DNA of 64,000 nt from NCBI GenBank assembly GCA_016215625.1, contig JACRIW010000042.1:3463-67462 (forward strand). Reading direction: 5' to 3'. Both the position numbers and the translations under genes were made by a program. The DNA comes from Candidatus Eiseniibacteriota bacterium. Its GTDB lineage: Bacteria > Eisenbacteria > RBG-16-71-46. Below the pieces are notes generated by a model that saw only the letters and a program-made list of their open reading frames with translations, was not told the origin of the DNA and made no database searches. Shown here one piece after another: positions 40,802 through 43,639 of the stretch (position 1 is its first letter; each line of letters opens with the position of its first letter).

Positions 40802-43639
40802 ATGCCACTCACTCCCGGTACCCGGCTTGGTCCCTACGAGATCTCCGCGCCGATCGGCGCCGGCGGCATGGGCGACGTGTATCGCGCGCGCGACTCGCGC
40901 CTGGGCCGTGACGTCGCCATCAAGGTGCTGTCGACGCGTCTGACGTCGAGCGACGACCTGCGCGCGCGCTTCGAACGCGAGGCGCGCACGCTGTCGCAGC
41001 TCAACCACCCGCACATCTGCACGCTCCACGACGTCGGCAGTCACGAAGGCGCCGACTATCTCGTGATGGAGCTGATCGAGGGCGAGACGCTCGCGTCGCG
41101 CCTCGAGCGGGGACCGCTGGAGATCGCCGCGTTGCTCTCGAGCGCCGTGCAGATCGCGGGCGCGCTCGCCGAAGCGCATCGCGCGGGCCTCGTTCACCGC
41201 GACCTCAAGCCCGCCAACCTCATGCTCACCGAGTCGGGCGTGAAGCTGCTCGACTTCGGCCTCGCGGCTCCGGCGATCACGCGCCCCGAGCAGGGCGAGA
41301 TCAGCCAGGTCGAGACCGTGCACCAGCCGCTCACGGCGGCGGGCATGATGGTCGGCACGTTCCAGTACATGGCGCCCGAACAGCTCGAGGGTCGCGAGGC
41401 TGACGAGCGCAGCGACCTGTTCGCACTCGGCTGCGTGCTCTACGAGATGGCGACCGGCCGCCGGCCGTTCCGTGGCAACGACACGATCACGCGGCTCAGC
41501 TCCATGCTGCGCGATCGGCCGGACCCGCCGGCGAGCCTGAACGCGGCCATGCCGCGCGCGCTGGGCGAGATCGTGGCGCGCTGCCTCGAACGCGACCCTG
41601 CGCTGCGCTACGCGAGCGCCACCGAGCTGCGCGATGCGCTGCTCGCGCTGGAGCGCTGGCCATACGACGAGGCGCTGCCGGAGCTATCGCGCATCTGCGA
41701 GCGCATCCTGTTGCTGGAGGAGGGCGCCGAGTCGTGGAACGCGTTCGTGCTGGCGCGCGAAATCGAGAAGCTGGCTCCCGGCGATCCCATGCTCGAAAGG
41801 CTGCGGCCCGATTTCTCACAGCCCATCACGATCCTGTCCGATCCGCCCGGTGCGCACGTGACGGCGCGCTTCTACGGCGATCCCGACGGACCGCGCCTCG
41901 AGCTGGGCCGGACGCCGCTCGAGAACGTGCCGTACCCGCGCGGAGTCACGCGGCTCGAGCTGGAACTGCCCGGATATCGACCTGCGTGTGACATGGTGCT
42001 CAACCTTTCCCGTGTCCTTACCAATGCGACCGAAGCGGACTCGCCGACGTGGCGCTACACGCTGCATCGTCCCGGCGAGATTCCCGACGAGATGGAAGCC
42101 GTGCCCGCGGGCGGCTTTCCCCTGTACATGCCGGGGCTCGACCATCTGGACACGGAGCCGACGGGCGCGTTCCTGATGGACCGCCATCCCGTGACGAACC
42201 GTGAGTACAAGCGCTTCGTGGACGACGGCGGCTACGCGCGCGAAGAGTTCTGGCGCGAACCGTTCACCGACGGCGCGCAGACGCTGTCACGGGCGGAGGC
42301 GATGACGCGCCTGACCGACGCGGTCGGCCAGCCCGGTCCCGCGAGGTGGGAGATGGGCGACTATCCCGCGGGCGAGGACGACCATCCGGTCACCGGCGTG
42401 AGCTGGTACGAGGCTGCGGCCTACGCGGCGTGGGCGGGCAAGACGCTGCCGACGATCTTCCATTGGAACCGCGTCGCGATGACTTTCTCGAGCGCGCTCA
42501 TCGTGCCGTTCGCAAACCTGTCGGGTCGCGGCACCGTGGCCGTCGGCAGCACGAACAGCGTGAATCGCTTCGGGGTGCACGACCTGGCGGGCAACGTGCG
42601 CGAGTGGGTGGTGAACTCGTTCGGCAGCTCCGACCAGCGCTACATCCTGGGCGGCGGCTGGAACGACATGGGCTACGCGTTCGTGGACGCGTACGGACAG
42701 CCTGCATTCGACCGTTCGGCGACCAACGGCATTCGCTGCATTCGCGCGATGGAGCCGGATCCGAACCAGGAGCGTCTCTCGCGCGCGATCGAGTTCCCGA
42801 CGCGCGACTTCCTGGCCGAGCCGACGGTGTCCGACGACGTGTTCGGGTTCTTCCTGCGCCAGTTCCACTACGACCGCACTCCGCTCGACGCGAAGATCGT
42901 CGCCGAGCAGCCGGTTCCGGCCGGGGTGTGGCAGACCATCGATCTCGCGGCGGCGTATGGTGGCGAACGCATGCAGGCGCACCTGTTCCTGCCCGCGCGC
43001 GGCCGGGCGCCCTATCAGACGGTCGTGTTGTTTCCCGGCTCACTGGCGCTTCACACCCGCAGCTTCAACCTCGCGGAGGTGCAGCGCGTCGAGTGGATCC
43101 TGAAGAGCGGCCGCGCGCTGTTGCTGCCGGTCTACAAGAGCACGTACGAGCGCGGCGACGAGCTGGTGTCGGACTACCCCCAGCCGACCGCGTTCTACAA
43201 GGACCACGTGATCATGTGGGGCCGCGACCTGGGCCGCGCGATCGACTACGTGGAGACGCGCCCCGACCTGGACGCCGGTCGCATCGCGTACTTCGGCACG
43301 AGTTGGGGAGGACAGCTGGGTTCGATCCTGCCCGCGGTGGAAACGCGCATTCGCGCGAACGTGCTGTACGTGGCCGGCTTCTGCTTCCAGCGTTCGCTGC
43401 CGGAGGTGGACCCCGTGCACTACGTGAGGCGCGTGACCCAGCCCACGTTGATGCTGAACGGCGAGCTGGACTTCTTCTTTCCGGCCGAGACGTCGCAGCG
43501 CCCGATGTTCGAGCTGCTCGGCACGGCGCCGGAACACAAGCGGCGCCTGACCTACCCGCGCGGCCACACCGTGCCCAAGGTGGACCTGATCAAGGAAACG
43601 CTGGGGTGGCTCGAGAAGTACCTGGGTCCGGTGGAATAG
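40802..43639 (+). CDS. Multidomain Ser/Thr kinase: Hanks kinase + PEGA-like module + FGE-sulfatase (SUMF1-like) domain + alpha/beta-hydrolase (DLH/S9-like) domain (K5)
   Basis: Kinase: GAGGMGDVYRARD, VAIKVL, HRDLKPANL, DFGLA. FGE-like: MDRHPVTNREYKRFVDDGGY, HPVTGVSWYEAAAYAAWAGKTLPT, GVHDLAGNVREWV, ILGGGWND. Hydrolase: GTSWGG nucleophile elbow, NGELDFFFP, PRGHTV. No TM helix seen. Confidence 0.93.
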   Translation: MPLTPGTRLGPYEISAPIGAGGMGDVYRARDSRLGRDVAIKVLSTRLTSSDDLRARFEREARTLSQLNHPHICTLHDVGSHEGADYLVMELIEGETLASRLERGPLEIAALLSSAVQIAGALAEAHRAGLVHRDLKPANLMLTESGVKLLDFGLAAPAITRPEQGEISQVETVHQPLTAAGMMVGTFQYMAPEQLEGREADERSDLFALGCVLYEMATGRRPFRGNDTITRLSSMLRDRPDPPASLNAAMPRALGEIVARCLERDPALRYASATELRDALLALERWPYDEALPELSRICERILLLEEGAESWNAFVLAREIEKLAPGDPMLERLRPDFSQPITILSDPPGAHVTARFYGDPDGPRLELGRTPLENVPYPRGVTRLELELPGYRPACDMVLNLSRVLTNATEADSPTWRYTLHRPGEIPDEMEAVPAGGFPLYMPGLDHLDTEPTGAFLMDRHPVTNREYKRFVDDGGYAREEFWREPFTDGAQTLSRAEAMTRLTDAVGQPGPARWEMGDYPAGEDDHPVTGVSWYEAAAYAAWAGKTLPTIFHWNRVAMTFSSALIVPFANLSGRGTVAVGSTNSVNRFGVHDLAGNVREWVVNSFGSSDQRYILGGGWNDMGYAFVDAYGQPAFDRSATNGIRCIRAMEPDPNQERLSRAIEFPTRDFLAEPTVSDDVFGFFLRQFHYDRTPLDAKIVAEQPVPAGVWQTIDLAAAYGGERMQAHLFLPARGRAPYQTVVLFPGSLALHTRSFNLAEVQRVEWILKSGRALLLPVYKSTYERGDELVSDYPQPTAFYKDHVIMWGRDLGRAIDYVETRPDLDAGRIAYFGTSWGGQLGSILPAVETRIRANVLYVAGFCFQRSLPEVDPVHYVRRVTQPTLMLNGELDFFFPAETSQRPMFELLGTAPEHKRRLTYPRGHTVPKVDLIKETLGWLEKYLGPVE

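Follow-up and report, generated by a model that had tools for sequence, protein, structure and literature searches.

The stretch analysed here, referred to below as the window, is 64,000 nucleotides of contig JACRIW010000042.1 from a Candidatus Eiseniibacteriota bacterium (assembly GCA_016215625.1), and the gene of interest lies on its forward strand at 40802..43639, stop codon included. The gene is one unbroken open reading frame (ORF) starting with ATG and encodes 945 residues: a Ser/Thr kinase without a transmembrane (TM) helix, followed by a C-terminal cassette made of a linker, a PEGA-like module, a domain resembling formylglycine-generating enzyme (FGE) and an alpha/beta-hydrolase. A first-pass annotation of the window had described a single TM-less protein of four parts, namely a complete Hanks kinase, a PEGA-like beta module, an FGE/SUMF1-type domain and a hydrolase. 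Every motif string it quoted is present in the frame. Pfam and AlphaFold2 (AF2) bear out the parts, and a three-helix linker makes them four or five. The AF2 predictions were two domain-level models (residues 285-662 and 655-945), which show a beta-sandwich, an FGE fold and an alpha/beta-hydrolase.

The lack of a TM helix was borne out by a Kyte-Doolittle scan, in which the top 19-residue mean (1.51) lies within the kinase core and every mean outside that core is ≤1.1. The TM helix between kinase and sensor that characterises a receptor-type single-pass Ser/Thr kinase (STK) is absent. The G+C content at codon positions 1, 2 and 3 (0.69, 0.48 and 0.89) matches that of genuine genes in this 69% GC window and differs from that of overlapping spurious ORFs. 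An assembly error or frameshift joining separate genes, which the annotation had named as a way in which it could be wrong, has a negligible probability. The frame is uninterrupted, third-position GC is uniform along it, and collinear homologues at 99-100% coverage occur in more than 100 independent assemblies from NCBI, JGI, ENA and Logan. Nothing in support of such an artefact was found.

Domains of the 945-residue protein

The kinase domain occupies residues 1-284 (40802..41653), with the Pfam Pkinase match at residues 12-271 (E 1.9e-48). All the features by which Hanks-type Ser/Thr kinases are recognised were found: the Gly-rich segment G19-G24, K41 (codon 40922-40924), E60, H132-R133-D134 (D134 at 41201-41203), N139, D151-F152-G153 (D151 at 41252-41254) and the APE residues P192-E193. 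Activation-loop T178 and T186 and the bacterial 'RF' motif (R56-F57) are also present. Each key residue is kept in at least 115 of 117 full-length homologues, with lone substitutions at K41, N139, T178 and T186. The Pfam score and this conservation uphold the claim of a complete Hanks kinase, and the domain is expected to be an active RD kinase. Its top NCBIfam match, PknB_PASTA_kin (2e-86), covers the kinase part alone and scores 291 bits against a cut-off of 450. What is shared with the PknB/Stk1 PASTA kinases is the plan of a Hanks kinase governed by an envelope-associated ectodomain, but the 945-residue protein has no PASTA repeats, carries a wholly different sensor and is soluble. The 'DLHK' family of a bacterial STK atlas, suggestive by name, was considered and set aside as unrelated, its members being pseudokinases that lack the VAIK Lys and the HRD Asp.

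The linker (residues 285-338, 41654..41815) is TPR-like and consists of three helices in the AF2 model (residues 286-300, 310-324 and 329-337). A TPR_14 match falls on the corresponding region of one relative (P0204), and in TM-bearing relatives the linker sits directly after the TM helix. The model of residues 285-662, with a mean predicted local distance difference test score (pLDDT) of 88.5, places the three helices at residues 286-337, an all-beta module at 339-420 and then the FGE fold. The PEGA-like beta-sandwich (residues 339-425, 41816..42076) was assigned from this all-beta segment, from relatives and from a sub-threshold Pfam match (PF08308; residues 342-396 of the whole protein, E 0.004, 17.5 bits; sub-sequence, E 7.4e-4, 19.8 bits; cut-off 20.8). 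Of 17 relatives, nine gave a PEGA match, the strongest at E 5.6e-6. Published work places PEGA after TM segments and describes it as associating with peptidoglycan (PMC7159879).

The FGE-like domain occupies residues 440-655 (42119..42766). Pfam FGE-sulfatase (PF03781) matches residues 456-615 at E 7.3e-26 and 91.8 bits, against a cut-off of 23.3, which places the domain in this superfamily, and Foldseek with the AF2 model matched the EgtB C-terminal domain, FGE and SUMF2 at E 4e-12 to 1e-9. True FGEs have two catalytic Cu(I)-binding Cys after GGS(Y/F), C336 and C341 in the human enzyme. Here the catalytic pair is absent: the sole Cys in residues 440-655 is C646 (codon 42737-42739, motif GIRC). 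Residues 617-646 read GGGWNDMGYAFVDAYGQPAFDRSATNGIRC, with no Cys between GGGW (617-620) and GIRC, and the stretch equivalent to the copper-binding Cys segment of true FGEs reads GGGWNDMGYAFVDAYGQPAFDRSATN. No conserved Cys pair was found among the 117 homologues, in which C646 is the single conserved Cys. HMMER alignments to FGE structures end just past GNVREW, short of the active-site segment, and the non-catalytic verdict is for that reason argued from the Cys count; with a single Cys, the domain should not be a formylglycine-generating enzyme. The C-terminal half of the domain alone matches only non-catalytic FGE-fold proteins in the PDB (PorK/GldK, SUMF2 and PvdO), and a sequence search with this half found no FGE at E ≤10.

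Could the domain still be enzymatic, as a sulfatase-maturing FGE or as an EgtB/OvoA-type sulfoxide synthase? The strong Pfam match (E 7e-26), the identity of the best PDB matches (EgtB, OvsA and FGE) and a partial NCBIfam EgtB match at 8.7e-23 point that way, but the last scores 81 bits against a cut-off of 360 and its alignment is limited to the EgtB C-terminal domain. EgtB-type activity is excluded by the absence of the DinB-like N-terminal iron domain with its 3-His site that EgtB, OvoA and SenA would require, the upstream region here being the helical linker and PEGA. An FGE is opposed by the lone Cys of the domain and the lack of a Cys pair anywhere in the family, by an active-site segment that cannot be aligned to FGEs, and by the absence of a sulfatase gene from the window. 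Catalysis by this domain is thus very improbable.

The domain is instead best read, from its sequence and fold, as a C-type-lectin-fold binding module without enzyme activity. N598 and E601 of GNVREW are invariant and may correspond to the FGE Ca2+ site. The same fold without the Cys pair is found in SUMF2/pFGE (1y4j), PorK/GldK (9mzu), PvdO (5hha) and Treponema denticola TvpA (2y3c), the variable protein of a diversity-generating retroelement, and GNVxEW and GGxW...GFRC motifs are common to these and the present domain. Identity to them is only ~20-25%, and they stand alone or belong to secretion machinery, not to signalling proteins. FGE itself has been described as a C-type-lectin fold, and FGE-type domains have been so interpreted in conflict systems (PMC7159879); FGE-sulfatase domains also serve as sensors in STAND NTPases (PMC13581612). 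The annotation label should be corrected accordingly, the domain being neither an FGE nor a sulfatase-related enzyme.

The alpha/beta-hydrolase (residues 656-945, 42767..43636) belongs to the broad DLH/CE7/S9 group by its AF2 model, Foldseek matches and conservation. The model of residues 655-945 (pLDDT 91.7) has the canonical alpha/beta-hydrolase fold with Ser, Asp and His in the expected order, and a Foldseek search with it retrieved 978 PDB structures at E ≤0.001. The first-pass annotation had noted a GTSWGG elbow with Asp and His candidates. These can now be named as S834 in the nucleophile elbow G-T-S834-W-G-G (codon 43301-43303), D890 (43469-43471) and H922 (43565-43567). All three, together with R784, are invariant in 117 of 117 homologues, TM-bearing and TM-less alike, and G832-x-S834-x-G836 is invariant or nearly so in both groups. 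The hydrolase therefore has an intact triad and is apparently active, as judged from these residues.

The best structural matches to the hydrolase were CE7 acetyl xylan esterases and cephalosporin C deacetylase (E 4e-14, TM-score ~0.7), followed by other esterases, glucuronoyl esterases and a dienelactone hydrolase. For the CE7 enzymes (6agq, 3fvt, 1ods, TM0077) and DLH (3f67), at E 4e-14 to 1e-12, the likeness extends to the N-terminal beta extension, the G-x-S-x-G-G elbow and the Ser-Asp-His order, at just 14-20% identity; CE7 enzymes are, however, free hexameric cytoplasmic enzymes and not receptor domains. Sequence profiles were weaker. The Pfam DLH match (residues 807-899, E 0.0015) is sub-threshold, and AXE1 (E 0.27, 10.4 bits; cut-off 21) and Peptidase_S9 (E 0.1, 12.5 bits; cut-off 22.6) both fall short, which places the domain in neither the CE7 nor the S9 family. 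The signature motifs of CE7 are RGQ, GxSQGG and HE; at these positions the hydrolase has R784-G-D, GTSWGG and G-H922-T.

The hydrolase had been called 'S9/DLH-like', and of this description the DLH/CE7 likeness stands while S9 peptidase does not. It had further been proposed that an S9 peptidase is split here, with the hydrolase as one half and the PD40 propellers of the neighbouring kinases as the other. The PD40 kinases do share the window with the hydrolase, which lies in the broad DLH/S9/AXE1 group, and some of its relatives match Peptidase_S9 at E 1e-5 to 1e-8. Fold, profile scores and topology nevertheless contradict the proposal. The match of the hydrolase itself is sub-threshold, its best 50 structural matches include no S9 peptidase, and there is no propeller in the 945-residue protein. 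Moreover, a TM helix is present in all but one of the four PD40 kinases, which puts the propellers of those three in the periplasm while the hydrolase is cytoplasmic, and across about ten phyla the hydrolase travels with the PEGA and FGE-like domains whether PD40 kinases are present or not. A split S9 peptidase is scarcely credible, and the protein should not be annotated as one.

A cassette shared across phyla and outputs

The four-part arrangement had been thought unusual. It is in fact common, and deposited under generic names. A search for full-length homologues returned at least 120 clusters, mostly of 940-1000 residues, at 99-100% coverage and 39-92% identity, from sources that include Eisenbacteria, Zixibacteria, Phycisphaerae, Vicinamibacteria and Thermoanaerobaculia. 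The closest among the matches listed is 92% identical and labelled Candidatus Eisenbacteria. When the cassette (residues 285-945) was searched against 1.84 billion 50%-identity representatives, 1,624 proteins were found at E ≤1e-30; in 148 of the best 150 (E ≤1e-125) the alignment spans the cassette wholly or for the most part. When one genome per GTDB species was scanned with a sequence pattern, at least 557 loci were confirmed, nearly all in metagenome-assembled genomes, in Acidobacteriota, Gemmatimonadota, Bacteroidota, Ignavibacteria, Calditrichota, Latescibacterota, Myxococcota, Planctomycetota, Eisenbacteria and Proteobacteria. The annotation had said that an architecture both common and annotated would count against its interest. 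Common it is, yet no database gives a specific functional annotation, the names being 'protein kinase' or, at JGI, 'dienelactone hydrolase', 'FGE' and similar.

No description of the cassette was found in the searchable literature. A bacterial STK atlas mentions kinase-FGE-sulfatase fusions only in passing (bioRxiv 10.1101/2025.01.12.632604). The Pkinase-TM-FGE-sulfatase receptor kinases (for example one architecture of its 'Proteo1' family) likewise have an N-terminal active Hanks kinase followed by an FGE-fold domain, and TM-bearing relatives of the 945-residue protein share their kinase-TM-ectodomain topology. They differ in that here the FGE fold is part of a fixed cassette with a TPR-like linker, PEGA and an intact hydrolase, and in that the copy studied is TM-less. 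A Hanks kinase with an FGE-fold sensor is thus of a kind already known, and the claim of rarity fails; what is new is an undescribed, widely distributed cassette with an apparently active hydrolase, common to at least five output types.

The N-terminal partners of the cassette in the best 150 representatives were classified with Pfam and local phmmer. Many of these proteins are too short to hold a kinase. The partner is a Hanks kinase in 91 of the 150, a class III adenylate/guanylate cyclase (Guanylate_cyc) in 11-12, a TIR domain in three, an OmpR/CadC-type winged helix (Trans_reg_C) in three or four and a BTAD transcription activator in at least four, while about 20 have a bare polytopic anchor of two or three TM helices. 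In virtually all of them a TM helix lies between the N-terminal partner and the cassette. Four representatives first scored as kinases without a TM helix were rejected as independent TM losses; their Ala-rich TM helices fall slightly under the threshold. The kinase, cyclase, TIR and DNA-binding partners need cytoplasmic ATP, NAD or DNA, which places the cassette outside the membrane. Since a constant extracytoplasmic unit is combined with swappable outputs, we infer from this architecture that the linker-PEGA-FGE-hydrolase cassette marks a mobile extracytoplasmic sensor module.

The anchor-only forms (P0122, P0136, P0151 and about 17 others) carry the cassette behind an anchor of ~130-190 residues with no recognisable output domain. 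Either the anchor signals by itself or these are plain membrane-tethered enzymes. Some family members (P0091, P0101 and P0160; 1262-1285 residues) have an extra N-terminal extension of ~300 residues ahead of the kinase, and in one representative the cassette is preceded by matches to both a kinase and a cyclase.

In TM-bearing full-length relatives, an insert of ~45-55 residues comprising a low-complexity juxtamembrane spacer and a single TM helix lies exactly at the junction of residues 284 and 285 (...LALE|RWPY..., 41651..41656). When these were aligned with the 945-residue protein and its closer relatives, the latter showed a clean gap of ~50 residues at this point. The TM helix is absent from 81 of the 117 full-length homologues and present in 36. 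In a neighbour-joining tree the TM-less sequences all fall together, adjoining a TM-bearing sister group, and when the indel region was left out both splits had bootstrap support of 100/100. Cassettes with all other outputs carry a TM helix, so the loss, and with it the cytoplasmic location of the 945-residue protein, is read from these sequences as the derived state. The protein had been called cytoplasmic in the first-pass annotation, which is right for this TM-less copy but wrong for the original state, in which the cassette lay outside.

The sensor shows no decay in sequence after its relocation. Within the TM-less clade the catalytic residues are all kept, and the FGE-like domain and the hydrolase have higher sequence identities (0.68 and 0.67) than the kinase (0.59). 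The mean Cys content of the sensor rises modestly, from 1.4 per protein in TM-bearing to 3.6 in TM-less sequences, which fits a move into the reducing cytoplasm. Conserved disulfides could not serve as a marker of periplasm or cytoplasm, as C646 alone is conserved and there is no pair to compare. Members of this clade are soluble full-length proteins and would lend themselves far better to expression, assay and crystallisation than the membrane-bound forms.

One of the PD40 kinases in the window (3074-5887, +, 937 residues) also has PD40 directly after the kinase and no detectable TM helix (best 19-residue Kyte-Doolittle mean 1.42, inside the kinase). The other three have a TM helix right after the kinase. 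This kinase may be the second receptor-type kinase in the genome to lose its membrane anchor.

Proposed role in signalling

The reading that we favour, and consider moderately probable, is that the protein is a soluble representative of a large and as yet uncharacterised bacterial signalling family, whose shared C-terminal cassette (linker, PEGA, non-catalytic FGE fold and triad-intact hydrolase) senses a ligand and switches a transducer, and that the TM segment was excised in its clade. The domain make-up, the conserved residues, the modular spread and the TM loss are observed; the proposal goes beyond them in saying that the cassette is a sensor, what it senses and which way the signal passes. 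According to it, the lectin-like domain would act together with the hydrolase to bind an ester- or amide-containing ligand, which the hydrolase would probably cleave. In the ancestral receptors the ligand would plausibly be derived from the envelope, from polysaccharide or from the environment, given that PEGA is regarded as peptidoglycan-associated and that the hydrolase is most like carbohydrate acetyl esterases. Occupancy or turnover of the ligand would alter the oligomeric or conformational state of the TPR-like linker and so switch the transducer. In TM-bearing relatives the single TM helix would link the outer cassette to a cytoplasmic kinase, class III cyclase, TIR or winged-helix/BTAD domain. 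In the TM-less clade the cassette, joined directly to the kinase C-lobe, would read a cytoplasmic ligand. For the RD kinase the switch would consist of activation-loop autophosphorylation at T178/T186, followed by substrate phosphorylation.

Catalytically active alpha/beta-hydrolases are known to act as receptors in RsbQ, D14 and KAI2 (10.1101/2023.12.05.570042; PMC3531792). In Bacillus subtilis RsbQ (with RsbP) and in plant D14/KAI2 a triad-intact hydrolase is the ligand-perceiving element, and the likeness that we propose is in the way of working. The hydrolase is a separate protein in those systems, whereas that of the cassette is fused to its transducer.

A number of points weigh against the sensor reading. 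The hydrolase is not homologous to RsbQ/D14 beyond the superfold, so that the parallel is functional only; no member of the RsbQ/D14/KAI2 clade was found among its Pfam matches or best 50 Foldseek matches. The PEGA assignment is below threshold in the 945-residue protein itself. The neighbour-joining tree is unrooted, and the direction of the TM change is taken from the outgroup comparison above. Synteny extends to close Eisenbacteria relatives only; no gene neighbourhood is conserved beyond them (P0002, P0056, P0111 and P0085), and the neighbours gave no clue to a pathway. Finally, a constant cassette with a variable N-terminus could also fit a constant effector enzyme with variable regulators.

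In one alternative the protein is a bifunctional enzyme: the hydrolase, aided by the lectin-like and PEGA domains, would be the working effector, for example an esterase with an envelope or cytoplasmic substrate, which the kinase only regulates or localises, or the two activities would be independent. The invariant triad, which implies that catalysis is under selection, fits this alternative, as do the closest folds, which belong to genuine enzymes (CE7 acetyl xylan esterases, cephalosporin C deacetylase, glucuronoyl esterases and DLH), and the ~20 of 150 representatives with only a polytopic anchor and no recognisable transducer. In TM-bearing relatives, however, the cassette and the output domain are on opposite sides of the membrane, which means that phosphorylation, cyclic nucleotide or NAD chemistry cannot reach the hydrolase. 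The variable partners, furthermore, are all classical signal-output domains and not sensors. We therefore regard a bifunctional enzyme as unlikely, though it is the alternative to the sensor reading that we take most seriously.

Less probable still is a role in immunity or conflict, in which the cassette would recognise a phage or competitor molecule and the kinase, or TIR in relatives, would execute defence. The TIR domains of TIR-fused relatives match Thoeris ThsB, SAVED-TIR and Argonaute-TIR models, FGE-sulfatase domains are sensors in defence-associated STANDs, and the kinase domain scores highly against PD-T4-6 defence-kinase models. The PADLOC matches are nonetheless confined to the generic kinase domain (residues 6-285), with none on the cassette, and do not make the protein a PD-T4-6 defence kinase. 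TIR fusions account for ~2% of representatives. No defence genes flank the gene at this locus or in four relatives, the neighbours here being glycoside hydrolases, FG-GAP proteins and other kinases, and the ancestral place of the cassette outside the membrane suits environmental or envelope sensing better.

A larger claim can be put forward tentatively, as possible but on balance doubtful. The cassette would be a bacterial input module, very widespread and so far undescribed, in which an active hydrolase and a lectin-like domain form an enzyme-receptor with substrate binding or turnover as the signal (compare D14, KAI2 and RsbQ), feeding at least five kinds of transducer (STK, cyclase, TIR, winged helix and BTAD). 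The 945-residue protein would then document its relocation into the cytoplasm by precise TM loss with all active sites kept. The sensor domains of bacterial Ser/Thr kinases, class III cyclases and membrane-bound one-component regulators are mostly of unknown specificity. Here a single cassette, connected to at least five outputs, occurs in hundreds of species spread over about ten phyla dominant in soils and sediments, Acidobacteriota, Gemmatimonadota, Bacteroidota and Eisenbacteria among them. Because it holds an apparently active hydrolase, the ligand could be found by ordinary substrate screening, and experiments could thus address with unusual directness what signals these organisms perceive.

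Neighbouring genes

The gene at 40802..43639 appears to be monocistronic. Its upstream neighbours are secreted FG-GAP proteins and a GH16 glucanase, each with a C-terminal FlgD_ig domain, and downstream lie a 1,304-residue beta-propeller/Calx-beta protein, an EEP-family protein and a kinase-TPR protein. This order is common to an 88%-identical Eisenbacteria relative but not to more distant family members. No sulfatase, FHA or defence genes adjoin the gene.

The window contains six Hanks-type kinases: the 945-residue protein, the four with PD40 propellers (3074-5887, 14001-17015, 16720-19698 and 19739-22516) and one with TPR repeats (48937-52050). ORFs 14001-17015 and 16720-19698 overlap by ~300 nt, and the true start of the latter is probably further downstream, because its kinase domain begins at residue 112. 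A SpoIIE/PP2C-family phosphatase (27365-28642, −, E 2.4e-47) is encoded 12 kb upstream of 40802 and is a possible partner for one or more of these kinases.

The FlgD_ig-like ending is shared by four large proteins that look secreted: two FG-GAP proteins, the GH16 glucanase and a GH81 protein with CBM6 and PKD domains (33913-36198, 36090-38420 and 38955-40757, all +, and 57920-61435, −). It looks like a lineage-specific C-terminal sorting or anchoring tag, and the arrangement recurs upstream of the homologue in L001.

Between 56000 and 58200 the GC content falls to 0.60 from ~0.69. A 221-residue ORF in this region (56776-57441) has a signal-peptide-like N-terminus, and the adjacent ORF 57462-58175 contains an IS3-type integrase-core-like stretch, DYVRPGKPVDNAFVESFNG. 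The region probably represents the remnant of an insertion sequence or DNA acquired horizontally. Scans for Rfam families and tRNAs across the window, this region included, found nothing. In a further ORF (23933-27325, +, 1,130 residues), an M1-peptidase-like region occurs together with an M28 peptidase domain and, at the C-terminus, a PDZ domain.

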